Positions 3,033-49,263 are shown, counted from the stretch's first letter. The stretch: DNA of 64,000 nucleotides from a bacterium (GCA_030648955.1 JAUSHB010000010.1:13556-77555); one strand, 5' to 3'. Numbers and translations are program-made. The notes: generated from the sequence alone by a model not told the origin.

Positions 3033-4238
3033 TTACGACAAAATTTTTAATTCCTTTCCAATTAATTCACAACACTTTATAAGATACGCGATTTGATCAT
3101 TTGAATGTGTTGACATAACTGTTAATCTAAGTCTTGCTCGATGTTTAGGAACCGCGGGCCATCTTACACAAGGAGCGTAGATACCTTTATCAAGCAACAT
3201 TCTCGAAAACTCAATTGCTTGTTCGTCTTCTCCTATTAACACAGGAACAATTTGAGTTTGACTCCCCAATGTATCAAAACCAAGTGTATTTAATTTTGCC
3301 CTTAAATCATCTGATTTTTTATTTAATAAAACCCTCAGATTAGGTTCTGATTCTATAACCTCTAGAGAAGTAATGAGTGAAGCTGACACAGCGGGCGGTA
3401 GAGCTGCTGAAAATATATATGGTCTGCTTGCTATTCTTAAATATTTGATTAAATTTTTACTTCCCACTACAAATCCGCCAACTGAAGATAGTGCCTTGCT
3501 ATGTGTTCCCATTACAATATCAACATCAGTAGTTGGTTTTAAGTTAAAGTGCTCAAGTGTGCCGTGGCCATTTTTTCCAATCACTCCGGTGGCATGCGCT
3601 TCATCTACCATCAATAAAGAATTATATTTTTTGCATAAAGTTACTATTTTATCTAAGGGTGCTATATCACCCTCCATACTAAATACACCGTCAGTTACAA
3701 CTAATTTTCTTCTGTGTTTAAATTTTTTGAGCTTCTTTTCTAAATCATTCATATCACAATGCTTATAGACGACGACTTTTTGTCCGCTCGCTTTTGCACC
3801 ATCAACGATACTTGCATGATTCAAATCATCGCTTAGTATGACGCTTCTTCTCCTAAAAAAATCATATGGTCCAACCTTGAAGGGATTCATGACGGCGGAA
3901 ATAACACCAAGATTCGTTTGATACCCCGTAGAAAAAACAATTGCGTCTTCTCCCCCTTTAAATTTAGCTATAGCTAGTTCATACTCTCTGTGTACCTGTA
4001 AATTTCCTGACAACATCCTAGAACCTCCTGACCCGACTCCGTATTTCTTTGTAGCTTCAATTGCGGCTGCAACAACTTTTGGGTGCGTAGCTAGTCCAAG
4101 ATAGTTATTTGAAGAAAACATCAGTACCTTTTTTCCATTTATGATAACTTCTGGTTCCGCAGCCCCATCAATTACATGCAAATCGGGATAGAGATGGTGC
4201 TCCTCCACATACTGCATAATATCTTCGATACGTTTCAT
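3033..4238 (-). CDS. PLP-dependent acyltransferase of the glycine C-acetyltransferase (KBL) / 8-amino-7-oxononanoate synthase family
   Basis: 401 aa with the class-II aminotransferase fold. The lysine motif GTHSKALSSVGG and the FSSNNYLGL region are typical of KBL/BioF/SPT enzymes. Confidence 0.85.
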   Translation of the reverse strand: MKRIEDIMQYVEEHHLYPDLHVIDGAAEPEVIINGKKVLMFSSNNYLGLATHPKVVAAAIEATKKYGVGSGGSRMLSGNLQVHREYELAIAKFKGGEDAIVFSTGYQTNLGVISAVMNPFKVGPYDFFRRRSVILSDDLNHASIVDGAKASGQKVVVYKHCDMNDLEKKLKKFKHRRKLVVTDGVFSMEGDIAPLDKIVTLCKKYNSLLMVDEAHATGVIGKNGHGTLEHFNLKPTTDVDIVMGTHSKALSSVGGFVVGSKNLIKYLRIASRPYIFSAALPPAVSASLITSLEVIESEPNLRVLLNKKSDDLRAKLNTLGFDTLGSQTQIVPVLIGEDEQAIEFSRMLLDKGIYAPCVRWPAVPKHRARLRLTVMSTHSNDQIAYLIKCCELIGKELKILS

Positions 4239-4283
4239 ATACTTTTTGGACTATATTAAAACAGTCAAAATGAGTCTACTACA

Positions 4284-4334
4284 CCCCCAGAATACCAAAA
4301 ATCCCCCGATTTTTCAATGGGTTTGTGGGGATAT
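4284..4334 (-). promoter_or_regulatory. R-repeat copy 1 (promoter/operator-like), 46 nt upstream of the kbl-like start
   Basis: The minus strand reads TTGAAA-17 nt-TATTCT, with the spacer palindrome AAAAATC-GGGG-GATTTTT. It is one of six copies. Confidence 0.5.
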
Positions 4335-4398
4335 TGAGTTTAAGCCCTTGCTTTTTATATTTCAGACCCCACATAATCAATATGTTATAATTAAACCT

Positions 4399-4929: not shown

Positions 4930-5640
4930 TTGAACTCTTCTTCGTGGTTTTTGTGTTTTAGGCAACCTGAATTTGGAAGTCCTGCTTCCAAATTCACTCA
5001 AGTAGTTAAAAGCTTGAGGGACTTTTTTAAAAAATTATTAGTATATGATATGAATACATTTTTACATTCTCAAAATCCAAATATTAAACCGCTTGAATTT
5101 ATTGAGAAAGTTCTTAGTTTTTGTGATACAGGAAATGCTTTAGATCTAGGTGCTGGAACAGGGAGAAATGCAATATTCCTTGCGAAAAAAGGATTTAAGG
5201 TTGTTGCACTTGATTTATCTGGACAATCTGTGGATGAACTTACTCAATACTCTGCGCGTGAAGGTTTGTCATTGAAAACTTTCGTGTATAATCTTGCCAC
5301 AAATACACCTGATTTTTCAAATTACAACATAATTTTATTTACGTTTATACTCCATTATATTTCTAAGGAGAGAGGAGAAGAATTGATTGCTACTGCCCAA
5401 AAACAGGCTAACACGGGGACTATTCACGCGCTGGCTGTTATTACTACGGAAGGAGATTTTTTTGCTAAGGAAACCCAAAAGAAGAATTTTTATCTTGAAC
5501 CGGGGAATCTTGCAAAAAAATATGAGAAAGAGGGGTGGACAGTATTATCGTCGTTTGAAGAAAATCGGGCTATGGCAATAAAGAATGCGGATGGAACTCA
5601 GATGAAAAATTTGGTGTCATTTTTGATTGCAAGAAAATAA
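4930..5640 (+). CDS. SAM-dependent methyltransferase, TehB-like
   Basis: Motif LDLGAGTGRNAIFLAKKGFKVVALDLS. The start may be the internal ATG at 5050. Confidence 0.75.
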   Translation: MNSSSWFLCFRQPEFGSPASKFTQVVKSLRDFFKKLLVYDMNTFLHSQNPNIKPLEFIEKVLSFCDTGNALDLGAGTGRNAIFLAKKGFKVVALDLSGQSVDELTQYSAREGLSLKTFVYNLATNTPDFSNYNIILFTFILHYISKERGEELIATAQKQANTGTIHALAVITTEGDFFAKETQKKNFYLEPGNLAKKYEKEGWTVLSSFEENRAMAIKNADGTQMKNLVSFLIARK

Positions 5641-5649
5641 CAAAGGATA

Positions 5650-5690
5650 AGGAGGTCAGCAAGAGAGGTTTCACCTCCTTACAGCGTTTT
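5650..5690. terminator. hairpin GGAGGT...ACCTCC followed by a T-rich run
   Basis: AGGAGGTCAGCAAGAGAGGTTTCACCTCCTTACAGCGTTTT lies directly after the 4930..5640 stop. It is also the first structure downstream of R-repeat copy 2 on the minus strand. Confidence 0.5.
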
Positions 5691-5717
5691 ACATAAAAAT
5701 TTTAACAAAGAATCTTA

Positions 5718-5768
5718 CCCCCAGAATACCAAAAATCCCCCGATTTTTCAATGGGTTTGTGGGGATAT
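5718..5768 (-). promoter_or_regulatory. R-repeat copy 2, between two convergent genes with no obvious target gene
   Basis: Identical to copy 1 over about 50 nt. Confidence 0.45.
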
Positions 5769-5795
5769 GTTACTTATTTAGAGCTGTGTCTGAAT

Positions 5796-7829
5796 TTAAA
5801 TTTTTAGATCTAAATTTTGAGCAAAAAACGTAAGCAAAAGAGTCTGACTTTCAACAATTTTCTTTATTGGCTTACCTGGACCATGCCCGGTTTCCATTTC
5901 TGTAAAAATCAGCACTGTGTTCTTTTTATTAACGGATTGTAGCATGGCGGTCATTTTTCGTGCATGAAGTGGATCGACACGAGTATCCTTACTTGCTGTT
6001 GTAAAAAGGAAGGAAGGATATTCAACTCCCTCTTTCACGTTGTGGTATGGACTCCACTTTAAAATTCTTTGCAGATCTTCTTTTACTTCGGGGTTACCGT
6101 ATTCATGGACCCAACGAGATGCAATACCAAACAAGGGAAATCTAACCATATCAATTAATGGAACTCGAGAACAAACTGCTTTAAATAATTCTGGTCGCTG
6201 AACGGCAACCGCAGAAACCAATAAACCGCCGTTACTTCCTCCCAAAATACCAAGATGATCTCGGTCGGTATACTTTTCTTGAATAAGATATTCGGCGGCG
6301 GCAATAAAATCATCAAAAGAATTTTGTTTATTTTCTTTCATGCCATCTTTGTGCCATTTTTCACCAAATTCACCGCCACCTCGAATATTCGCAATAACAT
6401 AAATGCCTCCACGCTCCATCCATGACACGAAGCCTCTCATAAACCCTGGTGTGTTGAGGTCTGCAAAACCACCGTACCCATAGAGGATAGTAGGATTAAC
6501 TCCATCAACAGATATATTTTTCTTGTGAAAAATAAAAAGGGGTACTCTAGTTCCGTCTTTGGACTGATACCATTCCTGCTTGGTAACATAATCATTTGGG
6601 TTTATTGGGTTATCTGTTTTTCGGTATACCTCAAACTTATTTTCAATTGGAGAATATCGATATGTTATTTTAGGAAAAGTAAACGAATCAACGCCATAAA
6701 AAAACTCATCTTCTTCAATGTTCCTAGAAATTCCGGCGAGACTCGAATACGGAGGAAGTGGTATTTCGCCGATTTCTTTACCACTATGGTCAAACATTAC
6801 CACCTTTGAACAAGCATCAACAAGATAAGTTACGATTATTTTAGTTTTTGTAGTAGTTTCTGACTGCAAAAGATATTTCCGCTCTGGAATTAATTCTTCC
6901 CAGTCTTCAGTCGGAGTAAATAGATTTATGATAGGAACCGAAAGGATTCTAAAATTATTTGCATTATAATTAGTACCTACAATTACTTTATCTTCTAAAA
7001 ACTTGAGTGAAAATTTCGCAGGCATACCAACTACAAAAGGTTTTGTTTGCTTAGTATCCCTATCGTAAATATAAATATCGTTTTCAGTCCATGTTACCGC
7101 TGATGAAATTGCCAAATATCGTCCATCCATTGAAATAGTAATACCGAGCATATCATCTTTTGGACGATCTTTACCGAAAATAAGTTCATCGTTATTTGGA
7201 TTATCACCAATTTTATGAAAATAGATTTTTGTATGAAGATGTTCCTCGTTTTTAGGAACAGTACCAGGTTCGGGGTTCTTCGTATAGAAAAAACCGGAGT
7301 CATCAGGAAGCCAACTTATTTGGGAATGTCTGCACCGAGGAATTTGTTCTGATAGATTTATACCAGTATCCACTCCCTTTATGTACATTATTGCCATCTC
7401 ATCACCTCCCTGCGAAAGACCATATGCGAGATATTTACCAGTTCGAGATACCGACCAAAAAGCGATATTGATCGTATTGTCATCCCTCATCCCATTAGGA
7501 TCTACAAGTTTAACGGGGTTGCCATTTATTCCAGTTCTCACATAAAGTGCGGATTGGTCCTCGTCCGGTTGGCGCTCGCTATAAAAATACTTTCCCCTAA
7601 CAGGAATAGGATTTGAAAAATTAACAACCTTAAAATTCTTAACGAGTTCGTTAGAGAATATTTCAAAATTTTCATTTCGTAGGAAGGAATCAGTATAGGA
7701 ATTTTGAGATTCAACCCATTCCTTTGTTTCAGAACTTTTTGCATCTTCAAGCCAACGGTATGGATCAGATATTGAAATGCCATTAATAGAATCAATGATG
7801 TTATCTTTTTTAGTTTGTGGAATTTTCAT
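5796..7829 (-). CDS. prolyl oligopeptidase (S9A family serine peptidase)
   Basis: 677 aa with a beta-propeller N-terminal half and a C-terminal alpha/beta hydrolase. Catalytic serine motif GGSNGGLLV, plus YGYGGF. Confidence 0.85.
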   Translation of the reverse strand: MKIPQTKKDNIIDSINGISISDPYRWLEDAKSSETKEWVESQNSYTDSFLRNENFEIFSNELVKNFKVVNFSNPIPVRGKYFYSERQPDEDQSALYVRTGINGNPVKLVDPNGMRDDNTINIAFWSVSRTGKYLAYGLSQGGDEMAIMYIKGVDTGINLSEQIPRCRHSQISWLPDDSGFFYTKNPEPGTVPKNEEHLHTKIYFHKIGDNPNNDELIFGKDRPKDDMLGITISMDGRYLAISSAVTWTENDIYIYDRDTKQTKPFVVGMPAKFSLKFLEDKVIVGTNYNANNFRILSVPIINLFTPTEDWEELIPERKYLLQSETTTKTKIIVTYLVDACSKVVMFDHSGKEIGEIPLPPYSSLAGISRNIEEDEFFYGVDSFTFPKITYRYSPIENKFEVYRKTDNPINPNDYVTKQEWYQSKDGTRVPLFIFHKKNISVDGVNPTILYGYGGFADLNTPGFMRGFVSWMERGGIYVIANIRGGGEFGEKWHKDGMKENKQNSFDDFIAAAEYLIQEKYTDRDHLGILGGSNGGLLVSAVAVQRPELFKAVCSRVPLIDMVRFPLFGIASRWVHEYGNPEVKEDLQRILKWSPYHNVKEGVEYPSFLFTTASKDTRVDPLHARKMTAMLQSVNKKNTVLIFTEMETGHGPGKPIKKIVESQTLLLTFFAQNLDLKI

Positions 7830-7832
7830 TGT

Positions 7833-8048
7833 TTAGCGCAGGTCCTTAAGCGAAGAAAGCTTCTTCCCTTTTCCGTGTTCAAATTGCTCTCGGTCTCTTT
7901 TTAGAGACGCAGTAAAATTTCGTGCTTTTTGCTCACGCAAAAGATGGCGAAAAAATTCACTCGTGGAAGAAAACCCCCCTATCCTCACCTCTTTTCGGAT
8001 TTCTTTGGCGGTTATTTCGGGAACAGAAATATTAATGATGGTACGCAT
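7833..8048 (-). CDS. ribbon-helix-helix (CopG/ParD-like) DNA-binding protein
   Basis: 71 aa. ...TSEFFRHLLREQKA resembles RHH antitoxin/repressor sequences. Its stop lies 3 nt from the peptidase start. Confidence 0.5.
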   Translation of the reverse strand: MRTIINISVPEITAKEIRKEVRIGGFSSTSEFFRHLLREQKARNFTASLKRDREQFEHGKGKKLSSLKDLR

Positions 8049-8062
8049 GATTGTGTATTATT

Positions 8063-8083
8063 TTGTAATAATTTGTATTACAA
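8063..8083. promoter_or_regulatory. perfect 8-bp inverted repeat TTGTAATA-N5-TATTACAA overlapping the RHH gene start region
   Basis: It lies 15-35 nt upstream of the 8048 ATG and overlaps TATATT/TATTAT -10-like hexamers. This is a typical RHH autoregulation operator arrangement. Confidence 0.45.
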
Positions 8084-8147
8084 TATAATACTACCTTCGT
8101 AAGCAGATACTGTCAAGATGTATTATCTCTATACGTTCCAAATACCA

Positions 8148-8184
8148 AAAATTCCCCGGTTTTTCAATGACTTTGTGGGGATAT
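8148..8184 (-). promoter_or_regulatory. R-repeat copy 3 (variant), about 90 nt upstream of the RHH start
   Basis: ccaaataccaaaaattccccggtttttcaatgactttgtggggatat. Confidence 0.45.
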
Positions 8185-8288
8185 TGGAGTAGCTACATAT
8201 ACTGAAATTTTACTTGACAGTAATAGTCCGCATACTATATACTTAAAGCACTAAACGTGAACGGCATCCTATATGGGTGCCGTTCTTG

Positions 8289-8912
8289 TTATCTCCTTTT
8301 TAATCGTTCACGAAGATATTCAAAATCCCTAAAATTACTCCCGGCGAATTGACGAATTTCTTTTGCAGTTCTCGGCCCCCTCGCTAGAACAATAACCTCC
8401 TTTTTTATTTCTCTAAGATACTTAAGCACGGGCAAGAAATCACCATCACCAGAAAGTACGACGATGCGATCAAATTTATCTCGTTCCTTCATAAGATAAA
8501 ATGCCATATCTACATCACAGTTCGCTTTTCGTTTTGTTGTTCCATCTTCCTGGTCATACAACTTCACTGGCTTAAGGAATAATTGATACCCGAACTGTTC
8601 AAGTCTCAGGTAAAATCTTGTTCTTTGTAGGTGTCTACCGATCAAAAGAATGTCAGCCTCATTAAGTTCTTTTCCGCTGTTCTGCAATAATCCAAGAAGA
8701 TGTTTTTCGAGGGATTTTAGCGGAACGGTTTCATTTGTTTGATAATTATATTTAAAATTATGAACTTCAACACCTCCGAAGTAGAGTGTTTTCTTGACAT
8801 CATATTTTTCTTGTAGATACTCTAGTAGTTTTTCGTAATCTATCTTCCACCCTAAACTTTTTTCTCCACCATAAAAGAGATTTGACGCATCAATAAAAGC
8901 AAAAGTTTTCAT
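8289..8912 (-). CDS. NYN-domain (LabA-like, PIN-fold) protein
   Basis: FIDASNLFYGG ... VVLSGDGDFLPVLKYL matches the NYN / LabA family. Confidence 0.75.
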   Translation of the reverse strand: MKTFAFIDASNLFYGGEKSLGWKIDYEKLLEYLQEKYDVKKTLYFGGVEVHNFKYNYQTNETVPLKSLEKHLLGLLQNSGKELNEADILLIGRHLQRTRFYLRLEQFGYQLFLKPVKLYDQEDGTTKRKANCDVDMAFYLMKERDKFDRIVVLSGDGDFLPVLKYLREIKKEVIVLARGPRTAKEIRQFAGSNFRDFEYLRERLKRR

Positions 8913-8937
8913 AGCGAAAAATTATATACCCCCAAAA

Positions 8938-8987
8938 TACCAAAAATCCCCCGATTTTTCAATGCTTCCGTGGGGATAGGTAATTAA
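8938..8987 (-). promoter_or_regulatory. R-repeat copy 4, directly upstream of the NYN gene
   Basis: A TATATAAT element lies about 8 nt before the ATG, so the transcript is probably leaderless or has a very short leader. Confidence 0.5.
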
Positions 8988-9001
8988 GCACGTTAAATCG
9001 T

Positions 9002-9670
9002 CTAATCAATATCGAGTAGCGCTTGTTCGGTTTTTTGATATAGTGCAGTTAATTGTTTTTTGTTGTACATATGGGGGTATTTTGTATTAACGATTTTCAC
9101 GTTTTTTGCCAAAATATCATTTTTGAATAATTCCACCCATACTGCCTTATCATCACCTTTGGAAAAATAAATAAATAATTTATATCCTCGTATATTTTTT
9201 ACCATTTTTCTGATATCCAATTTAGCGAGGTCTCGCGCTAGGGTTTTACTGATATGAAATTTATTTAATTTATATAAATATTTTCCGGCGCTTTTGAGTG
9301 TCCTGTGCCCGTCTTTTGGTATCCATGGCGATGGCGACCAAAAGACAATTTTTTCGATACTTTTAGGGAGTCTTGATAGCATGAGAATGCTCGACCCAAA
9401 ACTATGGCCGATTATATACACGTGCTTATATTGTTTTCTGCGTGCATAATGCGCAAGAAAATGATTAACTCTTTCTATAATTCTCTTTATGTCTTGATGC
9501 AACTTCGTTTTGCCATCATAAAGCGTCAACGAAACAATGTCGCATTTATACTTAATTCTACTTAAGGGGGTAATAATTTCACTCAACGCATTCGTCATCA
9601 ACCCGGGCAAGATAATAATCAGTCGTTGATTATTGTTTGTAGTTTTCAAATAATATTCCTGATTTTTCAT
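9002..9670 (-). CDS. alpha/beta hydrolase
   Basis: Nucleophile elbow GHSFGS; 222 aa. Confidence 0.65.
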   Translation of the reverse strand: MKNQEYYLKTTNNNQRLIIILPGLMTNALSEIITPLSRIKYKCDIVSLTLYDGKTKLHQDIKRIIERVNHFLAHYARRKQYKHVYIIGHSFGSSILMLSRLPKSIEKIVFWSPSPWIPKDGHRTLKSAGKYLYKLNKFHISKTLARDLAKLDIRKMVKNIRGYKLFIYFSKGDDKAVWVELFKNDILAKNVKIVNTKYPHMYNKKQLTALYQKTEQALLDID

Positions 9671-9699
9671 TAATTCTATTTACTTAAAAATATCAAAAA

Positions 9700-9728
9700 T
9701 TAAGGGCTGTAATTATTACAGCCCTTAA
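9700..9728. terminator. perfect palindrome TTAAGGGCTGTAAT-T-ATTACAGCCCTTAA
   Basis: 14-bp stem located between the 9738 stop and the 9670 start. Confidence 0.6.
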
Positions 9729-9737
9729 TCAGAAGGT

Positions 9738-9992
9738 TCACTTTAGATTGAAATCGCCGTTTTTTACTCCCTTGATGAAAAGATCCCATTCCTTGGGAGA
9801 AAAAAGTGCTGTGATCTTTTGGGAATCGTTTGTATTACGCACCACGATAACATCATGCCGCTGTGCGACACCAACACAGGTTTTAATCCCCCAACAGATA
9901 ACGGTACCCTGGGGAGCAACGAAATCTGAATCCTTCAGGCCTTTTGCTGCACGCTGTAATTTGTCCATGAAACGATCACGAGTTTTCGCCAT
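9738..9992 (-). CDS. DUF397-like small protein
   Basis: KTCVGVAQRHDVIVVRNTNDSQKITALFSPKEWDLFIKGVKNGDF matches the DUF397 pattern C-V-x-V-A ... V-R-[DN]-[ST]-xD ... F-[ST]-x-x-EW-x-F-[IL]-x-G-[VA]-K-x-G-[ED]-F. Confidence 0.55.
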   Translation of the reverse strand: MAKTRDRFMDKLQRAAKGLKDSDFVAPQGTVICWGIKTCVGVAQRHDVIVVRNTNDSQKITALFSPKEWDLFIKGVKNGDFNLK

Positions 9993-10026
9993 AATGAATC
10001 TCCTTAAATTTTCAAGATCAAATGCT

Positions 10027-10066
10027 ACTAACGACCGTTAATAGCTCTGTTGTTAGAATACATCAC
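10027..10066 (-). promoter_or_regulatory. conserved 5' element M, copy 1 (shared with 13475..13515)
   Basis: ACTAACGAccGTTAATAGCTCTGT-N5-AGAATACAT lies 34 nt upstream of the 9992 ATG. The second copy has the same geometry upstream of 13445. Confidence 0.5.
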
Positions 10067-10190
10067 CGTTTTAATTCGGTCAAGCAAAATTGCAAATTAC
10101 GAAACTAGAGGGAGATTTTGATCTCCATGAACGATAGCGGATAAAAAGATCCGCAATACTAGAAACTGCAAGCAAAATATGTTGCATGTA

Positions 10191-10240
10191 CACCCTAAAA
10201 ATACCAAAAATCCACTCGTTTTTCAACCCCGTGGTAGTCC
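10191..10240 (-). promoter_or_regulatory. R-repeat copy 5 (degenerate)
   Basis: ataccaaaaatccactcgtttttcaaccccgtggtagtcc. Confidence 0.35.
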
Positions 10241-10259
10241 ACACTGGGCAGATTATTAC

Positions 10260-10514
10260 TTACGCATACAACGTATGAGAACCGACATCCATAAAATATA
10301 CTTTTTTCTTGTGTAGTTTTATAATAATTCGATAAGCAAAATTCACAGAAAAAGCATGGTATTTTTTTAATTTTCCGTGCAATTTATGGAGTTTTATTTC
10401 CCCCTCGTTCTTTTTATTTTTAAACAACGCAACAGTGCGATAACAATCATCTTGGACCGCGGGAGATAATTTTCGAAAGGAACGCAAGAATCTGGCGGTA
10501 TAAAGATATTCCAT
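10260..10514 (-). CDS. type II toxin, RelE/ParE superfamily (YafQ-like)
   Basis: LHKLHGKLKKYHAFSVNFAYRIIIKLHKKKVYFMDVGSHTLY fits the RelE/YafQ C-terminal signature. It overlaps the upstream antitoxin by its start and stop codons. Confidence 0.7.
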   Translation of the reverse strand: MEYLYTARFLRSFRKLSPAVQDDCYRTVALFKNKKNEGEIKLHKLHGKLKKYHAFSVNFAYRIIIKLHKKKVYFMDVGSHTLYA

Positions 10515-10516
10515 TA

Positions 10517-10738
10517 TTACTTACTTCGTCCCGCTAATTTTTTGAGATCGCCCTTATAGACACGTCCTGTTTTAATATCGTTTTCCGCCTCCTGTATCCG
10601 CAAAAGTATCCGTTCTTCGCGAAGACGCTCGAGAGCAAACCGCACGAGATGCGCCTTGCTCTCACTTGTTCCCTGTGCAAGCTCCTCCTCAATAAAATTC
10701 TCGAGGTCTTTATTGATGGGTATGGTAATGGTAGTCAT
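10517..10738 (-). CDS. type II antitoxin, RHH/ParD-like
   Basis: 73 aa, ...SKAHLVRFALERLREE..., sitting immediately upstream of the toxin. Confidence 0.65.
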   Translation of the reverse strand: MTTITIPINKDLENFIEEELAQGTSESKAHLVRFALERLREERILLRIQEAENDIKTGRVYKGDLKKLAGRSK

Positions 10739-10792
10739 ATACTATATCTTAGTACTATATTATAGTAATTGCAAGTCAATAAAAGTGGTTCT

Positions 10793-10849
10793 CTGGAGAT
10801 ACCAAAAATCCCCAGATTTTTCAATGCTTCCGCGGGATACCGCCTATCA
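10793..10849 (-). promoter_or_regulatory. R-repeat copy 6, about 55 nt upstream of the antitoxin start
   Basis: ctggagataccaaaaatccccagatttttcaatgcttccgcgggatacc. Confidence 0.45.
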
Positions 10850-10863
10850 AGTTTCCCACAGGT

Positions 10864-12492
10864 GTGGTATTTTACTCTGTAATGGCCAAAGTAATACTCT
10901 CGGCAAAAGATACATCGTTTGAGCTCCAACATAAAACTCTTTTTAAAGAGCTTAATCTGACGATAAAAGAGGGCGATCGGATCGGATTGGTTGGGAAAAA
11001 CGGCAGTGGAAAAAGCACGCTTTTAAAATTGCTTGCGGGACAAATCGAAACAACAAGAGGCGTGATAGAAAACAAGGGTTCCTCGTACTATCTCCCCCAG
11101 TTAGACTTCTCGCTTTTTGGAAGCACCGACAAAATAGAAGAATATGTTTTTCGCCAAGGAGTAAATTGGTCCGCCCTTAATGCAAAGCTTCGCAAATGGT
11201 TTAAAGAAAACGAAATCAAGCCTGACCAAAAACTTCAAACACTCAGCGGAGGTGAGTTGATGAAACTCAATCTCGCGATCGCCGAAGCACACAATCCCAA
11301 TCTCTTGCTCCTTGATGAGCCAACAAACCACCTCGATGCAGAAGGTATTGATATTTTAAAGAAATTTCTCACAACATTCCCGGGGGCATTCATTATTGTT
11401 TCTCACGATCCATTCTTTCTTAATCTTGTGGTAAATCATATTTGGGAACTTGAGGAAGGAGCTGTCGCCGAGTATGGAGGGAATTATACACATTATGCCG
11501 ACCAGAAGCAGTTTAAGAAAGATGCGCGAGAACGGGATTATACGGCAACCAAGAAAAAATTAAAGAAGGTCAAAAAATCCATTGAAGCAGAACAAAAACG
11601 CGCAGACCGCTCAAAGCGCGTGGGAAGAAAAGAAGTGTTCGCAAACAACATGCCGCCGGTACTGAAAGGATTTTACGCAAACCAAGCATCCGGTACCGCG
11701 GGCAAGCAGGGAAAAAAACTAAGAAAAATCATGGCGCAACGAGATGAGAAAGCCAGTACATTAAAAAAGGAGAAACAACGTCCGCTGCGGTTTGTGATCG
11801 ACCACGACACTTCCGGCGCGCGAAAAACGTTAATTGCCATTAATGACGGAGTGCTTGGGGTTGCAGAAAAAACTCTTATCGAAAATATCGACCTTCGCAT
11901 TGTTTATGGCGACCGCCTTGTGTTAGTCGGCAAAAATGGCAGTGGAAAAAGTACGCTTGCAAAATCTATTGCAGGAGAAGATGCTGTGGTGGAACTCGGA
12001 GGGTACGTCAAACGCTCCCCCGACGCAGGTGTGGTGTATGTGGACCAGAAATACCAAATCATCGCCCCCAACCTTACGCTTATCGAGAATGTGGAAAAAT
12101 ATAATCCGAAACTTACTCATGAAGAAGTGCGGAGACAACTTGGTCGTTTTCTTTTCTATAAAGAAGAAGACGCGCGCAAGAAGGCGGGAGTCTTGAGTGG
12201 AGGCGAGGCGGCACGTCTTGTGTTTGCGATGGTCACGGCGGGATCAGTCGATCTTCTGGTGCTTGATGAACCAACCAACAACCTTGATATTGAAACACTT
12301 GATATTATCGCGGATGCTTTGAAAGATTTCGCGGGCGCATTGGTGATAATCTCTCACAACATACATTTTCTTAAACGTATCGGTATAGACACCGCGCTTA
12401 TCATCGACAAAAAGAAACTCAAAACCATGCGCTCGTCCCCCGCCGAACCAGAAGCGTTTTATAACGAGATGGTTAGTAGCATGAGTTCGTAA
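10864..12492 (+). CDS. ABC-F family ATPase (two tandem ABC domains, no TMD)
   Basis: Two Walker A motifs (GKNGSGKST twice), two LSGGE signature motifs, and an inter-domain linker rich in K/R/E. Confidence 0.85.
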   Translation: MVFYSVMAKVILSAKDTSFELQHKTLFKELNLTIKEGDRIGLVGKNGSGKSTLLKLLAGQIETTRGVIENKGSSYYLPQLDFSLFGSTDKIEEYVFRQGVNWSALNAKLRKWFKENEIKPDQKLQTLSGGELMKLNLAIAEAHNPNLLLLDEPTNHLDAEGIDILKKFLTTFPGAFIIVSHDPFFLNLVVNHIWELEEGAVAEYGGNYTHYADQKQFKKDARERDYTATKKKLKKVKKSIEAEQKRADRSKRVGRKEVFANNMPPVLKGFYANQASGTAGKQGKKLRKIMAQRDEKASTLKKEKQRPLRFVIDHDTSGARKTLIAINDGVLGVAEKTLIENIDLRIVYGDRLVLVGKNGSGKSTLAKSIAGEDAVVELGGYVKRSPDAGVVYVDQKYQIIAPNLTLIENVEKYNPKLTHEEVRRQLGRFLFYKEEDARKKAGVLSGGEAARLVFAMVTAGSVDLLVLDEPTNNLDIETLDIIADALKDFAGALVIISHNIHFLKRIGIDTALIIDKKKLKTMRSSPAEPEAFYNEMVSSMSS

Positions 12493-12512
12493 AAACATAT
12501 AATATTAAATGT

Positions 12513-13091: not shown

Positions 13092-13445
13092 TTAGCCACG
13101 AGAATGGTGTTCGTGACCATTAGGGGCTTGAATGCAAATACAAGCCATTTGGGGTTTCCCCGTATCGAGCCGCCAGCTTGTGATTCTGGCATGCGTAGCT
13201 TCGATTTCCGCAACCTTAACTGGCCGCATACGCAGTGTACGGTCGTCTGGGTTATTGGTTTCAAGCATCACTTCATCATCACCAACAGAAAAATGCTGGT
13301 GGAGCAAGTTCACCCCGAAACGGTCAAGGCACCTGTGCTTCTTCAGTACTTCCGCAACATCCGCAAGACATTTCTCGTCACTTACAGAGAAGAGAGGAAC
13401 CTGACTAAGGTCAGGGAGTGGATTGGTTTGTGAAATGTTCTGCAT
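13092..13445 (-). CDS. hypothetical small protein
   Basis: 117 aa, with a GGAGG-type RBS 9 nt upstream and conserved element M further upstream. The overlapping plus-strand ORF 13104..13433 is judged spurious. Confidence 0.4.
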   Translation of the reverse strand: MQNISQTNPLPDLSQVPLFSVSDEKCLADVAEVLKKHRCLDRFGVNLLHQHFSVGDDEVMLETNNPDDRTLRMRPVKVAEIEATHARITSWRLDTGKPQMACICIQAPNGHEHHSRG

Positions 13446-13474
13446 TTAAGTACCCTCCTGGGGTTCAAATGGCC

Positions 13475-13515
13475 ACTAACGAATGTTAATAGCTCTGTAA
13501 GGCAGAATACATTCT
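13475..13515 (-). promoter_or_regulatory. conserved 5' element M, copy 2
   Basis: ACTAACGAatGTTAATAGCTCTGT-N5-AGAATACAT lies 30 nt upstream of the 13445 ATG. Confidence 0.5.
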
Positions 13516-13593
13516 AGATAAAATATGTCAATAGTGGCAAGTGGTAATAAATTCTTAGTATTTTGAAGGCTTTGTGGAAATAGAAAAAATAAT

Positions 13594-38843: not shown

Positions 38844-39698
38844 TTAATCCTGAACAGGTAAACACAACTCTCCTGCTTCATCCAAAACATTTTTAATTTC
38901 GTTTTCAGTCATTCCATGTTCTCGTAAAATATTCTGATTACGTTCCACATCGCGACACAGCACGACATTGTTTTGAAGTAGGTGATTTTTTGAATTACTG
39001 GGAAGCGTAGACAGGCAGGTGAGCGGATGAACACCAGTATTTAAAATAAGATCCTGGAGATTCCCCTTTTGGGGATAATTCCAGCCAATAAGCGTGAGTC
39101 CGGCGCATGTTCCATAGTCAATTGCTTGCGAAGTTAGTTTTGTATTTGTCATAAGCCACCCCTCATGTACTCGCGGACTTCTTCCCTCTTTTTCCGCACG
39201 CGCTTCGTGAGCCTTGGTGATATCATCAAAGCGAGCCTTTACGTAAAGCGCCACCTTCACATCACTTTTAATCCCATGACTGTTGTGAAATTTGCATTCT
39301 ACAAAAATATGCTTATCTCCTTTTTCGGCAAGAATATCAACTTCGTGTTCAACGCAATATCCGGGCAAAATACCTCCTACCTTTACAGAATACCCTTGCG
39401 CTTTCAAAATCTCACCGACAAAACGTTCAAAAGGAAACCCTGATGGCCCGAGTTGCATTATGGCTTGCCTCAAACTATACCGTGCCGCAACAGGCGGACG
39501 GTGGCGTCGTAGAAGCGTAAATGCATGGTGATAAATGTCAGAAGTTTTTACATCATCACCGAGCTCACTTTCAACGTGTGCGATGATTTCCTCCGTAAGA
39601 GCTGATGGCGCACCAGCACTTTTAAGAGACATGCGAAGTTTGTTTGCCGAAAATTCCTCGCGTTCTCCTGATGCTTTTGTAATCCATCGTGGGGACAT
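38844..39698 (-). CDS. ATP-cone domain fused to an Mrr-like (PD-(D/E)xK) restriction-endonuclease-fold domain
   Basis: N-terminal ITKASGEREEFSANKLRMSLKSAGA ... is an ATP-cone, as in NrdR/RNR. The central FERFVGEILKAQGYSVKV ... HEVDILAEKGDKHIFVECKFHN gives the D ... E-x-K Mrr_cat pattern. Confidence 0.7.
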   Translation of the reverse strand: MSPRWITKASGEREEFSANKLRMSLKSAGAPSALTEEIIAHVESELGDDVKTSDIYHHAFTLLRRHRPPVAARYSLRQAIMQLGPSGFPFERFVGEILKAQGYSVKVGGILPGYCVEHEVDILAEKGDKHIFVECKFHNSHGIKSDVKVALYVKARFDDITKAHEARAEKEGRSPRVHEGWLMTNTKLTSQAIDYGTCAGLTLIGWNYPQKGNLQDLILNTGVHPLTCLSTLPSNSKNHLLQNNVVLCRDVERNQNILREHGMTENEIKNVLDEAGELCLPVQD

Positions 39699-44225: not shown

Positions 44226-45257
44226 CTATGCCGTAACTCGATATTTCCCTTTCTCGTCTCGTGCAAAATAATTGCTGTTTTGAAGATTTACCATAATAGT
44301 ATTTTCTTTCACCTGTCGTTCTTTGAGCACACGATCTACAATTTCTTTTTTTGTAAGGGGTCCCTCTTTTTTGAGAATCTTGCCAATAACATCACGCACA
44401 ACACCGCCTTCATAGCCCCATTGAGAGAGAGCGTAGAGACCTCGTCCAACAAGAACAAAACGTTTGTCTTTTATAAGTTCGTTGTGTGTTGTTGCAATAT
44501 GAGCACGCTTTCCAAAAACATCTGATATTGTTTTCGCGACATCGGTAAAATGCATGGGATTTCCTTGTTTTCGAAGCACTAAAAAAGCGTAATCTCTCAC
44601 ACCACGTGCAGACACATTGGGTGATGTTGAAACGCCCCATTCCCCCATAAGATTTCTTTTAATCTTTTTTGAAAGAAAAAGCCATCGTTTGAGAATTTCT
44701 TCATTTTTATATTGTTCTGAAATGTCTTTGAGGTGGTCAAGAAAGGAAGCGATCATTTCTGCTTCAGAAATAAGATCGTCGTCTGAAATATTTTCAAATA
44801 ATTTTTTGAGAGATTGATGAACTCTTTCGGCTATATTTTTATCGACAACCCAGCGATTCTTAAAGTGTTCATCTTCTTTGTGTTTCTCAAAAAGATGCCC
44901 GAGTACGAGTAAAAAGTTTATATTATTCTGAATAATTTTATCTGTTGAAATGTGCGTCAAAAGGCTTTCTTCGTCCACTACTCCACCCAATGAAACAAGT
45001 ACATCCTTAAGGTCGCTAAATGATTCCTGTGATTGCTTGAAAACTTCAGATTTTCTAATAATTTCAAGTGCAGCATTTTCAATCTGACGCACTCTCTCTC
45101 GTGTAATTGAGTACTTTTTCCCTATTGCCTCAAGCGTCATTTTCTTCCCATCACTCAATCCAAAACGGCCCTCGATTACGTTTCGGGCTCGCTCCGGTAT
45201 TACGGTAAGAAGTTTCTTAACAACTTGTTTGGGCTTGAAGGCTATAGTTTTTGCCAT
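44226..45257 (-). CDS. DNA-binding protein with an N-terminal sigma-70 region-4-like HTH and a C-terminal HARE-HTH-like winged helix
   Basis: MTLEAIGKKYSITRERVRQIENAAL is a classic region-4 signature. C-terminal MHFTDVAKTISDVFGKRAHIATTHNELIKDKRFVLVGRGLYALSQWGY fits the HARE-HTH / RpoE-N pattern (RFV-x-VG-x-G-x-Y-x-L-x-x-W). Confidence 0.55.
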   Translation of the reverse strand: MAKTIAFKPKQVVKKLLTVIPERARNVIEGRFGLSDGKKMTLEAIGKKYSITRERVRQIENAALEIIRKSEVFKQSQESFSDLKDVLVSLGGVVDEESLLTHISTDKIIQNNINFLLVLGHLFEKHKEDEHFKNRWVVDKNIAERVHQSLKKLFENISDDDLISEAEMIASFLDHLKDISEQYKNEEILKRWLFLSKKIKRNLMGEWGVSTSPNVSARGVRDYAFLVLRKQGNPMHFTDVAKTISDVFGKRAHIATTHNELIKDKRFVLVGRGLYALSQWGYEGGVVRDVIGKILKKEGPLTKKEIVDRVLKERQVKENTIMVNLQNSNYFARDEKGKYRVTA

Positions 45258-45376: not shown

Positions 45377-46776
45377 TTGAAAACAATGAACAACCTGAAA
45401 ATACCGCTAAGAAACGACTGGCTGGGGGAGATCAAAAGGCGTAGCCTTGAGCGTATGCGAAATACTGCTGAAAAGGAGCTGAATCCAAACCATTACCAAT
45501 TGTCGAGCGAGGCAAAGAAGAGACTATGCTGGATGTATGCGCTTTACAAAGAACAGGGCGGGAATGTGACTGTCGCTGCACGCAATATCGGGATTTCCAG
45601 ACAGTGGCTGTCGGAGCTGAAGGCAGTCTTTGAAAAGCACAGGAAAGATCCCCGCTCGCTTGAACCGGAATCGAAAGCTCCAAAGAATACGCGGAACAGA
45701 AAAAGGATATCGAAGGAAGTGGAGGGTAAGATACTGGAAGTGAGGGCTCTGTCAAAGAATGTGTGGGGAAAACAGAAGATTGCGGTGGTGCTTCTGCGAG
45801 ACCATCACATCGTCGTTGCCCCCAACACCGTGAACAAATATCTGCACAAACACAAGAAGATTGACCCAAAAATATCACTGAAGAATGAGCGTGCATGGAA
45901 AGCAAAATTGGAAAGAGAGAAACCGGAAGCAGAGTTGTTTGTAAGATACCGCCCGCCGAAAGCAATCAGAAAGCAATCAAGGATTTGGCACCGGGAGCAC
46001 TTGTGGAGAAAGACATGAAATATGCTGTAAAACCAAGCTCAAACGATACACACGGCACCGTGAGCAACTTCTGGTATCAACATACAGCAACAGATTCTTT
46101 TACGAGAATCCGAGCACTCACGCTCGCGAAAGACAGCACCGCAGATGGCTCTGCAATTGCGTATGCGGAGTCAAAAGAAAAGTTTCCATTCCGTACCGCA
46201 TGTGCGAACACCGACAATGGGAGCGAGAACAAGGGGGAGCTCCGCGAGATGCTCAAGAAAGATACCGTCTTCCACTTCTACTCAAACGCAGGGACTCCAA
46301 CTGACAATCCGAGAGTCGAGAGATCGCACCTCACGGATGAGCTTGAGTTCTACCAGAAAGGCGGTTTCAAGAAAACATTTGGGGAGCAACAAGAAGCGAC
46401 GGCAGTATGGGAGCACTTCTACAACTTCGTGAGACCGCATCAAGCACTGGGATACCTGACACCGATGGCATTCTATGAATTATGGAAAACGGATGAAGAA
46501 AGTGCGTTTGAAATCGTGGGGAAATATCAAAAGTATTTGGCGAAACAAAGTAAGAGGCTTGCGGGGGCGAGGAGGATTAAAAAGACGGAGCAAGTACAAA
46601 AACTTATGGAATTTATCGATGTAAAATTAAATCAAAAGGTCGGACTAAAAAGAGCTAAAGAAGCTCTGATCAACTGTCAATTATGTTCCATAGCTTGAAC
46701 ACAATCGAATGGCCTCACCAAAAATCTAAGTGTGGCAAGTATCGTGACCTCACGAAAAATCTAACTGTGAGATATT
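45377..46776 (+). mobile_element. insertion sequence 1: rve-type DDE transposase in two overlapping frames (orfA 45377..46018, orfB 45895..46698); ends not resolved
   Basis: orfA has an HTH and an IS481/IS3-like N-terminus (...VTVAARNIGISRQWLSEL...). orfB has an integrase-core DDE domain (...DNGSENKGE ... NPRVERSHLTDELEFYQ ... FVRPHQALGYLTPMAFYEL). orfB is in the -1 frame relative to orfA with a 124-nt overlap. A 65-bp block with two CCTCACsAAAAAT subterminal repeats sits at 46707-46771. Confidence 0.7.
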
Positions 46777-47942: not shown

Positions 47943-49263
47943 GAATGGCCTCACCAAAAATGTTACCAGCCAAGGTATCGTGACCTCACGAAAAAGGTTA
48001 CCAAGGATTAGTATTGGTGCATATGAAAATGCATACAAAACATGAAGTAACAAAAGAGATACTACCAAGATATTTAAAGGCCAGTAAAGACGAAAAGGGG
48101 AAAATTCTAGATGAGTTTGGAGCTATCACGGGATATCATAAAAAATCGGCGATTAGAAAACTACGAGAACTTCAAATGACTCCGCATAGTAAGGAAGGCA
48201 TAGCGGGGAAACATACGAGAAATCGTGAAAGAAAATACGACGGGTATGTCGAGGTTGTTGTGGAACAACTATATGAAGCTTTGGGTGGTATCGGTTCAAG
48301 AAGAATATATCCCTTACTTGAGACAATGATTGATAAAGGAATTGAGTTTGGACATATTAAAACTGATCCGATAACAGAAATGAAAGTTCGCGTCATGAGC
48401 AAAAGCACTCTTGATCGGATGATTACGCGGGTCAGAGAAAGAAATGCCATCAAAGGTATTTCAACGACCAGGCCGGGAACACTGTTGAAAAGCGAGATAC
48501 CGCTTCGGGTCGGCGTGTGGGAAGAAACAGATCCCGGGTTTTCCGAGATTGATCTGGTTGCTCACTGCGGAGACAGTGGTGCTGGAATGTTCATTTCGAC
48601 CTTAAATACCACGGATATTGCGACAGCTTGGTTTGAGGCGGAAGCTGTCATGGGTAAAGCTCAAGAACGCGTATTGGACGGTATGCGAGAGATTGAAGCG
48701 AGACTGCCTTTTACTCTCGCCGGTATCGATTCCGACAATGGATCAGAATTCATCAATCGTCAGTTGTATGGATATTGTTTAAAAAACAAAATCATTTTTA
48801 CCAGATCAAGGCCGTACAAGAAAAATGACAATGCACATATCGAGCAGAAGAATTATACGACCGTCAGACAAGTATTGGGATACCAAAGATTTGATACTGA
48901 AGAAGTACTTAAGCTGATGAAAACTTTGTATCGCGGACCGCTTCGATTGTACATTAATTTTTTTCAGCCTTCAGTAAAATGTGTGAAGAAAACAAGAATC
49001 GGTTCGAGAATCAAGAAAATATATGATGTGGCTAAAACTCCGTATGAACGAGTGCTTGCTCATCCAAAGATATCACAGAAAACAAAAGAGACGCTTACGC
49101 GTCTCTTTAAGAGTCTTGATCCATTCGAACTAAGAAAAGAAATTGATGTCTTGGTTAGAGAAATTCAAAAGCGCGGACGATGGCATTTGTGATATACTTT
49201 TTGCATTAAAAGTTAATCGCGCCCAGATTAATCCTCGGTAACATTCTTAGATGAGGTCATGCG
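47943..49263 (+). mobile_element. insertion sequence 2: single-ORF rve-type DDE transposase (48014..49192) with imperfect terminal inverted repeats
   Basis: Transposase of 392 aa with an N-terminal HTH and DDE residues in DLVAHCG / IDSDNGSEF / NAHIEQKN. The left end 47975-48010 (CGTGACCTCACGAAAAAGGTTACCAAGGATTAGTATTGG) matches the reverse complement of 49223-49263 (CGCATGACCTCATCTAAGAATGTTACCGAGGATTAATCTGG). The left end carries two subterminal direct repeats. Confidence 0.75.

Follow-up and report, generated by a model that had tools for sequence, protein, structure and literature searches.

The 64,000-nucleotide (nt) stretch analyzed here (GCA_030648955.1 JAUSHB010000010.1:13556-77555; hereafter the window) is chromosomal DNA from a bacterium of the candidate phyla radiation (CPR)/Parcubacteria type and carries a cluster of small genes at positions 8289-10738. 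The five open reading frames (ORFs) of this cluster, all on the minus strand, were found as given in a preliminary description, which had interpreted them as a defence or addiction island whose genes share a repeat, here called R. The evidence below favors another interpretation, which we consider probable: the cluster would form the interior of a string of modules, each expressed on its own, that is low in GC, prone to rearrangement, and about 11 kb long (up to 10.85 kb in the window) and that contains no recognizable defence system. Most of these modules would begin with a lineage-specific R of 45-55 nt acting as a promoter, possibly with an operator, and near-identity over 27-45 nt would make the R copies crossover points through which whole modules are gained, lost, or moved. 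The contents of the string appear mixed: a predicted toxin-antitoxin (TA) pair, a putatively orphaned antitoxin with a prolyl oligopeptidase, a near-orphan hydrolase, a DUF397-like protein, and a NYN-domain protein with a candidate small RNA.

The shared repeat is real. A search with the R core, ATTGAAAAATCGGGGGATTTTTGGTAT, allowing up to 3 mismatches, identified six copies, all on the minus strand and only between 4.3 and 10.8 kb, compared with no copies in 100 shuffled sequences and none expected by chance. A profile built from 37 distinct R copies, relaxed to E<=10, gave no further match in the remaining ~57 kb of the window. The field of the repeat is wider than the cluster described earlier and includes further copies with cores starting at 8142, 5726, and 4292. 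The six copies are as follows.

10774-10848, minus strand: R copy 1 (core 10799-10825), 60 nt upstream of the antitoxin start, TTGAAA-17-TATCTC with TG
10176-10250, minus strand: R copy 2 (core 10201-10227), diverged, its 5' side bearing a palindromic remnant resembling a miniature inverted-repeat transposable element (MITE), at one boundary of the block absent from sisters
8912-8988, minus strand: R copy 3 (core 8937-8963), 24 nt before the NYN start, at the same position in the sister contigs L010 and L014
8117-8193, minus strand: R copy 4 (core 8142-8168), at the other boundary of the variable block, preceding the genes for a ribbon-helix-helix (RHH) protein and the prolyl oligopeptidase
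5695-5777, minus strand: R copy 5 (core 5726-5752), with no same-strand gene downstream, facing the 3' ends of convergent genes
4267-4343, minus strand: R copy 6 (core 4292-4318), 53 nt before the bioF/Kbl-like gene at 3033-4238

R reads as a sigma-70 promoter with a -35 box TTGAAA, 17 nt of spacer, and an extended -10 box TGgTATTCT (or TATTTT) followed by a G-rich discriminator, GGGGG(T); the spacer contains the palindrome AAAAATC-GGGG-GATTTTT. A promoter consensus scan flagged four of the six copies, each with the TG (4292, 5726, 8937, and 10201). In the two that it left unflagged, at 8142 and 10799, the second hexamer is weaker (TATTTG and TATCTC, respectively). Across the 37 distinct copies, TTGAA and GGGATTTTTGGTAT are invariant and the center of the spacer varies; copies in which the left A-tract is destroyed retain both invariant blocks. 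The possibility that R acts as an RNA or DNA hairpin was rejected, because the element folds no better than shuffled sequences (z -0.5 to -1.3) and changes in the stem are uncompensated. About 45 nt past the copy at 5726 lie a hairpin (AAGGAGGT...ACCTCCTT) and a T-rich stretch (5625-5752, minus strand), and a short orphan transcript is possible if this R fires; the same 3' flank of R also faces a convergent gene in the sister contig L027.

The genes downstream of R are oriented accordingly. A co-oriented gene starts 9-210 nt past R in 17 of the 18 distinct downstream contexts. In the window and the sister contigs, R heads at least 15 unrelated genes, including those for MetRS, a bioF/Kbl-like protein, NYN, GNAT, an RHH protein, TA pairs, and two kinds of alpha/beta hydrolase, and it also heads an operon encoding a 389-amino-acid (aa) NAD-binding protein and then a histidine kinase. 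The presence of R before MetRS and other operons in sisters speaks against its use as a mark of accessory genes. The R core before the NYN gene is identical to that of the sisters at 27/27 and 25/27 positions, as against 54-55% at the four-fold degenerate sites of NYN itself; R is under selection. R is absent upstream of the NYN genes of distant Parcubacteria; it is lineage-specific. We rejected R as the general promoter of the genome, since the other ~57 kb, with mostly housekeeping genes, holds no copies. A second, independent promoter family of these genomes, the M-type family described below, has the same -10 hexamer TAYTCT, which supports the promoter reading of R. Full-text searching of the literature on promoter repeats in Parcubacteria gave nothing relevant. 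R is most likely a promoter, as predicted from these features, perhaps with an operator in its symmetric spacer.

The lineage specificity of R, the geneless copy at 5726, and the terminal inverted repeats of 9-10 nt carried by many copies (ATATCCCCA ... TGGGGGTAT) would also suit a selfish element similar to MITEs or repetitive extragenic palindromes, without function of its own and only incidentally placed before genes. We regard this explanation as unlikely, given that all six window copies and 17 of 18 sister contexts are co-oriented with the downstream gene and that the core is far more conserved than neutral sites. Furthermore, no target-site duplication is visible, the inverted repeats are confined to a subset of copies, and in many copies the 5' inverted repeat has been exchanged for unrelated flanks while the core remained invariant.

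Comparison with related organisms revealed that the cluster is polymorphic and that its breakpoints fall in or beside R copies. A metagenome scan for the R core gave 19 loci from related organisms, and two contigs of metagenome-assembled genomes encode NYN proteins 91-92% identical to that of the window. Three sister contigs, L020, L028, and L030, match the window with amino acid identities of ~90% for ABC-F, 88.5% for DnaJ, and 93% for DnaK. In these three contigs, the region corresponding to window positions 10267-12499 (TA pair and ABC-F; 82-87% nucleotide identity) directly abuts that corresponding to 7820-8184 (R and the 71-aa RHH protein), as determined by blastn. The intervening block 8185-10266, with the NYN, hydrolase, and DUF397-like genes and two R copies, is missing; in the junction alignment, its two boundaries fall on or next to the R copies at 10201 and 8142. 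According to the preliminary description, conservation of order and content across all related genomes would make the region core rather than accessory; order and content are not conserved across the sisters. The accessory character is supported for the inner block; the TA pair stays in place, and NYN is core-like.

The NYN module, consisting of R, the NYN gene, its 3' element, and the next R (8140-8986), is 84% identical in L010 and L014 but has other surroundings there; the order in L014 is ABC transporter, M16 peptidase, R, hydrolase, R, NYN, R, and MetRS. Several unrelated sequence types occupy the 20 nt located 5' of R: ATATCCCCACrrAsC, CATGTGGGTAAACyC, and the terminal part of a palindromic element. 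One downstream gene occurs with up to six 5' flank types, and each 5' type occurs with several genes. The upstream gene keeps its 5' type and the downstream gene its 3' flank, and therefore the crossovers would have occurred within the core or at its edge. Together, the mosaic flanks and the R-bounded indel indicate exchange between R copies, and we propose that block 8185-10266 is present here and absent in the sisters because modules exchange in this way. Homologous recombination over identities of 27-45 nt would be the simplest mechanism; no recombinase gene was seen nearby.

Other rearrangement scars lie next to the R copy at 10201, one of them a truncated reading frame.

10080-10187, minus strand: short ORF (MQHILLAVSSIADLFIRYRSW...), a gene-start remnant homologous to the N-terminus of the 389-aa NAD-binding protein

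The intact gene for this protein follows R in L017, and R together with the gene-start remnant precedes different small genes in L010, L016, L020, L024, L028, L030, and L032. A palindromic MITE-like element of ~66 nt (CCCGGTAGTGAAATTTAACAA...TTGTTAAATTCTACTACGGG) interrupts the -35 region of R in L028 (8540-8630) and L030 (6590-6680), where GTTGA is duplicated; it is absent from the same site in L020, and its remnant beside R(10201) occupies window positions 10228-10250. The short ORF remnant and this insertion are both counted as scars of rearrangement.

Breakpoints inside a repeat, with mosaic flanks, are also what an integron-like cassette array would leave behind if R were the site of a site-specific recombinase, equivalent to attC/attI. 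Such an array would account for co-oriented modules set apart by a conserved, imperfectly palindromic repeat, for the cassette-like content (TA pairs, GNAT, and small unknown proteins), for the copy at 5726, which makes sense as the 3' end of a cassette, and for the insertion of the small palindromic element into the GTTGA of R in L028 and L030. We nevertheless judge this explanation quite unlikely. No tyrosine recombinase was found among the 38 ORFs scanned with Pfam, a set that comprises all ORFs of at least 100 aa within ~13.5 kb of the cluster, except three known from contig annotation, and most of the larger ones beyond (~20 ORFs of at least 100 aa and all smaller ones fall outside it). 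In addition, the weak R hairpin is broken without compensation in diverged copies, and the start of the core, (A/G)TTGAAA, is a misfit to the attC core site GTTRRRY. R moreover has promoter features, abuts gene starts (once at 9 nt from the ATG), and heads essential genes such as that for MetRS.

Several observations weigh against R as promoter and crossover point. Its promoter activity is something we infer from sequence. The RHH, DUF397-like, and possibly TA modules have a canonical promoter of their own downstream of R, so R is not needed as the only promoter of the RHH and DUF397-like modules, and for the copy at 5726 there is no gene to transcribe. The NYN loci, with and without R, all show a -10 box 6-8 nt ahead of the ATG, and an alternative promoter using the right half of R as its -35 box is therefore possible. 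As to exchange, identities of 27-45 nt are near the lower limit for RecA-dependent recombination, and the sister comparison rests on a handful of short contigs. Finally, the conservation of the spacer and of GGGGG exceeds what a plain promoter requires. This last feature would be expected if R were mainly an operator, with a dimeric regulator such as the 71-aa RHH protein (RHH-71) binding TTGAAAAATC-GGGG-GATTTTTGG and co-regulating the modules, an idea compatible with the promoter reading. The half-sites, which span the promoter spacer, are symmetric at 8 of 10 positions, and RHH-71 is 91.5% identical in sisters even without a toxin partner. In contrast, the left half-site is destroyed in the copies L020_2289 and L026_1631, which retain TTGAA and the right half, and RHH-71 has a separate palindromic operator-like sequence downstream of R. 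Binding of R by any regulator is a prediction, and we consider a mainly operator function rather doubtful, if less so than a selfish origin.

The NYN gene and the DNA immediately behind it are both highly conserved.

8289-8912, minus strand: NYN (LabA-like) protein, 207 aa; PF01936, 66.1 bits against a cut-off of 24.2
8214-8293, plus strand: candidate small RNA with its promoter, TTGACA-18-TATACT at 8214-8243 and the RNA at ~8250-8293

A total of 2986 homologues of the NYN protein were detected, and the best 120 of these 2986, from several class-level lineages, are 75-92% identical to it. In one genome pair the NYN proteins are 80% identical, compared with 49% for the universal GTPase YchF, and the neighborhoods of the gene are wholly different between lineages. 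NYN ranks among the most conserved genes of the lineage and is not cargo. The structural model (pLDDT 84) has its best Foldseek match in the LabA-like NYN structure 2qip (E=2e-7, TMt 0.71), and it shows a helical insertion of ~55 residues (roughly residues 50-107). Residues D8, D133, D156, and D158 are invariant in 29 NYN homologues and, by analogy with PIN/NYN enzymes in general, we take them to be catalytic; the protein is a predicted nuclease. The position of the -10 box 6-8 nt before the ATG in all lineages suggests a leaderless or near-leaderless mRNA.

Immediately past the NYN stop codon, the DNA is ~93% identical to that of the sisters despite saturated synonymous sites. Hairpin terminators had been reported at each junction of the cluster; strong ones are present at two of the four (9698-9730 and 8259-8285), but not at the others, and the hairpin at 8259-8285 has no U-tail on the NYN strand. 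This supposed terminator of NYN appears to be the terminator hairpin of a conserved convergent small RNA, which consists of ACUAAACGUG, an 11-bp hairpin, and a U-rich tail overlapping the NYN stop codon. The RNA is conserved in 11 of 11 lineages (the window, L003, L006, L007, L010, L014, and L035-L039), each time just 3' of NYN. Opposite the NYN strand, the order is TTGAC(A), 17-18 variable nt, TAnnnT, ~6 nt, and the invariant ACTAAACGTG, then the hairpin with the loop TATAT and the T-rich tail over the stop codon. Pairing in the stem is retained in 121 of 121 cells, with compensatory double changes at three pairs, and one pair is U-G in all sequences, the complement of which, A-C, would be mismatched on the NYN strand; this pair therefore sets the strand of the RNA. 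The 44-nt RNA folds with -23.2 kcal/mol (z = -7.2). A covariance model found a single copy at each NYN locus (in the window at 8250-8293 on the plus strand, with 70 bits) and no further copy in 283 kb, including beside an NYN-domain gene of a different family in L007. Rfam 15 gave no match in the window at gathering score and none at E<=1 in 7800-10950 on both strands, and a scan of viral contigs for the NYN-linked RNA gave no match. A separate assembly from the same organism, contig L001 (Logan SRR13727527), with its end at 10094, breaks exactly within the hairpin of this RNA (window ~8256).

The simplest idea for the role of the RNA is cis-antisense control of NYN. Its sequence is ~92% conserved, which cis pairing does not explain and which therefore suggests sequence-specific recognition, with a protein, possibly NYN itself, or a trans target as the partner; a search of the window for a trans target of the 5' tail yielded the cis site only. 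The partnership of NYN and the RNA is one that we infer from their constant association, and literature text searching gave no description of an RNA linked to NYN or LabA. Both R and the NYN-linked RNA appear to be previously undescribed. A bolder, joint interpretation would make NYN and the 44-nt RNA a new Parcubacteria-wide protein-RNA system, in which the RNA could control, bind, or guide the nuclease, and would make the R copies the exchange sites of a promoter-carrying cassette system for the shuffling of genes in these reduced genomes; we treat it as a tentative possibility. The other kinds of element in the string (TA pairs, promoter-bearing repeats, and repeat-mediated rearrangement) are already known.

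The string also contains one TA pair and what may be the remainder of another.

10517-10738, minus strand: RHH/ParD-like antitoxin candidate, 73 aa, 3 nt upstream of the toxin gene and kept beside it in sisters
10260-10514, minus strand: toxin of the RelE/YoeB/YafQ fold, 84 aa, from predicted structure and profile
7833-8116, minus strand: 71-aa RHH protein (RHH-71, orphan antitoxin) with its promoter, TTGACA-17-TAGTAT, and a palindromic operator-like sequence; PF01402, 22.8 bits against 20.5
5796-7829, minus strand: prolyl oligopeptidase (S9), in the former toxin slot

The toxin scored below the cut-offs of the curated models (HigB-like 20.4/27, ParE_like 19.7/24.4, YafQ 18.1/30, and TIGR02385 19.1/27.9), and the earlier RelE/YafQ assignment was borne out at the level of fold. 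An AlphaFold2 model from a 44-sequence alignment (pLDDT 89.9) matched RelE, YoeB, and YafQ structures in Foldseek with probability 1.0 and TM 0.72-0.76, and the family profile, drawn from a family with 83 CPR homologues, matches RelE3 of M. jannaschii (3bpq) over its full length (E=9e-4). On this modeling, the protein is a true member of the RelE fold. For the antitoxin candidate, only sub-threshold ParD matches were found (TIGR02606, 19.5 bits against a cut-off of 46.2), with no Pfam RHH match and no PDB match; single-sequence PDB searches with toxin and antitoxin gave nothing useful. The pair is nonetheless predicted to be a genuine TA pair, the only one in the patch. It adjoins ABC-F in three of three sister contigs (L020, L028, and L030) and is the positionally conserved part of the patch.

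In L033, the gene for the 91.5%-identical counterpart of RHH-71 has that of an 84-aa RelE-like toxin 3 nt behind it. Homology to this toxin ends in the window after codon 3, from where the prolyl oligopeptidase ORF runs on, and the replacement is exact at the translationally coupled start behind RHH-71 (window 7820-7835; L033 3666-3680). RHH-71 is accordingly read as a former antitoxin whose toxin gene was replaced. A relationship between the 73-aa and 71-aa RHH proteins was considered and rejected, as they share no significant similarity.

A predicted nuclease, a hydrolase, and a toxin side by side are what had suggested a defence or addiction island, that is, horizontally acquired anti-phage or addiction cargo. 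The presence/absence polymorphism of the inner block, its low GC, the RelE-fold toxin, the near-orphan hydrolase, and the weak PADLOC matches of NYN are consistent with such cargo. PADLOC recognized no system, however: it returned weak, partial, generic matches to NYN (36 and 29 bits), nothing for the hydrolase, the DUF397-like protein, or the TA proteins, and a methyltransferase-domain match for a TehB-like gene. The proposed check for defence or phage neighbors likewise revealed no phage, integrase, or defence genes among the 38 Pfam-scanned ORFs, and the surroundings are housekeeping genes. In addition, NYN is ~80% identical across classes in which YchF is 49% identical, each time in an unrelated context, and the TA pair has a fixed position in the sisters. 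We therefore consider a defence or addiction island very unlikely. The profile hidden Markov model searches proposed earlier confirmed NYN and DUF397 but left the hydrolase, toxin, and antitoxin below cut-off. The claim that each gene has its own R or M-type element held for the antitoxin-toxin pair (10799), the DUF397-like gene (10201 and an M-type element), and NYN (8937), but not for the hydrolase, which has no R copy of its own.

The remaining genes and signals of the inner block are as follows.

9002-9670, minus strand: alpha/beta-hydrolase-like protein, 222 aa, with a GHSFG motif and weak Pfam matches
9738-9992, minus strand: DUF397-like protein, 84 aa; PF04149, 26.7 bits against 24 over residues 38-77, a marginal match
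9698-9730, minus strand: intrinsic terminator after the DUF397-like gene, a 15-bp stem followed by a T-run
10024-10083, minus strand: M-type promoter and hairpin of the 5' untranslated region (UTR) before the DUF397-like gene, TTGACC-17-TATTCT and GCTATTAAC-GGTC-GTTAGTAGC

Every Pfam match of the hydrolase is below cut-off (the best, Hydrolase_4, with 23.2 bits against 27). Among 5.8 billion proteins it matched only itself, and among 1.84 billion representatives it has 32 distant relatives, the best 43% identical; by these searches it is apparently a near-orphan gene. The hydrolase near NYN in L010 was considered as its counterpart and found not to be homologous. The DUF397-like gene has the diverged R(10201) ~205 nt upstream, besides the M-type promoter and leader. 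A single-sequence PDB search with its product gave nothing useful, and the candidate paralogues at 1447-1638 and 2631-2897 were rejected, their similarity being not significant and without a PF04149 match. The M-type family combines TTGACN-17-TAYTCT with a conserved 5'-UTR hairpin, CAGAGCTATTAAC-GGTC-GTTAGTAGC, in which stem substitutions preserve pairing. A second copy in the window lies at 13472-13530 (minus strand), before a 117-aa ORF at 13092-13445, and others occur in L010 (2195-2312) and L024 (330-445); the element precedes unrelated small genes, including ORFs of 67 and 164 aa.

The relatives of the NYN protein come from Parcubacteria, Giovannonibacteria, Wildermuthbacteria, Harrisonbacteria, and Minisyncoccia, and those of the toxin are likewise Patescibacteria. 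An ABC-F query against a genome collection gave one distant Acholeplasmataceae match and no close species representative. The cluster is surrounded by ABC-F, GNAT, the dnaK operon, ribosomal proteins, rpoA, and AlaRS; the variable stretch adjoins the ABC-F gene, and the dnaK operon is ~5 kb off. Elsewhere in the window, Pfam identified ribosomal proteins S9, S4, and S11, RpoA, AlaRS, MnmA, YchF, and a P-type ATPase. Three nearby ORFs outside the Pfam-scanned set were identified through the precomputed annotation of contig L001, which is identical to the window (ABC transporter, DnaJ, and acyltransferase); DnaK and GrpE are presumed by position and by the 93% amino acid identity of the DnaK-sized ORF to the sister contig. 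A search for tRNA and tmRNA genes gave no match. Extension of the contig to the left added only 1 kb. The GC content of the first 10.85 kb is 36.6%, as against 41.8% for the remainder; the 2.1-kb block, with 36.4%, has a lower value than any other segment of its size outside this region. Two ORFs with an rve domain (DDE integrase/transposase core) at 45895-46698 and 48014-49192, both on the plus strand, are the only mobility-type genes seen in the window; at 45.9-49.2 kb they are ~35 kb from the cluster.

Within the low-GC stretch, a 156-nt direct repeat, 99% identical, lies at 1396-1551 and 2580-2735 on either side of a methyltransferase gene (1641-2585). It represents the duplicated C-terminal half and terminator of two small paralogous proteins (...VVVTDDFGNTIAMSKDQFRVLVKGSKEGKLDI) and is counted as a further rearrangement scar. 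A 50-nt repeat of 78% identity connects the 3' end of the bioF-like gene (3033-3082) with 1269-1318. Farther away, the window encodes a protein combining an ATP-cone with the restriction-endonuclease-like Mrr_cat domain (38844-39698, minus strand) and another with sigma-70 region 4 plus a HARE-HTH domain (44226-45257, minus strand).

Each component of the string has partial counterparts among known systems. The TA pair shares with the type II systems RelBE, YefM-YoeB, and DinJ-YafQ the toxin fold (TM 0.75), a small antitoxin gene 3 nt upstream, and operator-typical repeat and palindrome sequences before the pair. It differs from them in belonging to a CPR-specific 84-aa subfamily whose single-sequence scores lie below all curated cut-offs, in the sub-threshold RHH assignment of its antitoxin, and in being fixed in position in sisters rather than mobile. 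With LabA-like NYN proteins (PF01936; VPA0982, PDB 2qip), the nuclease shares the domain score, the fold, and the invariant acidic residues, whereas the ~55-residue helical insertion, the extreme conservation in Parcubacteria, and the constant convergent 44-nt RNA set it apart. Convergent antisense RNAs overlapping the 3' end of their target are found in type I TA systems such as txpA/RatA and bsrG/SR4, and type III is represented by ToxIN. As in type I, the small RNA is convergent, has its own promoter, and overlaps the 3' end of a gene, here that of the nuclease. Unlike in type I, this gene encodes a highly conserved 207-aa NYN protein and not a small membrane peptide, and the RNA sequence is ~92% conserved, which cis-antisense pairing does not demand. 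Unlike in ToxIN, there is no ToxI-type repeat array.

R itself recalls promoter-bearing intergenic repeats, among them the Correia elements of Neisseria. The 'putative mobile promoters' of Matus-Garcia, Nijveen and van Passel from 2012 are reportedly repeats of the same kind. Common to both and to R are a homologous promoter-like sequence before many non-homologous genes and repeats at rearrangement junctions. In contrast to them, R is shorter (a 27-nt invariant core), lacks a target-site duplication, is strictly co-oriented with genes, and is locally clustered, all 6 copies lying within 6.6 kb while the remaining ~57 kb has none. Integron cassette arrays resemble the string in their co-oriented small modules with a repeat between them, in TA and GNAT cargo, and in the presence or absence of modules. 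They differ in that no integrase was found here among the scanned ORFs, the repeat is without attC-type structure, promoter features lie at the 5' ends of genes, and essential genes are among the R modules.

The genomes of CPR bacteria and Parcubacteria are small and come from uncultured organisms, and their gene regulation and genome plasticity are poorly understood. For one such lineage, R would provide a concrete candidate for a promoter or operator that also marks the sites at which genes are swapped. The cluster further advises caution in annotation: a nuclease gene beside a TA pair is not in itself evidence of defence, and in this case few proteins of the lineage are as conserved as the predicted nuclease. 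The tiny RNA gene, which is strictly linked to the nuclease and whose nucleotide sequence is conserved between class-level lineages, may offer a handle on an apparently important part of the RNA biology of the CPR.

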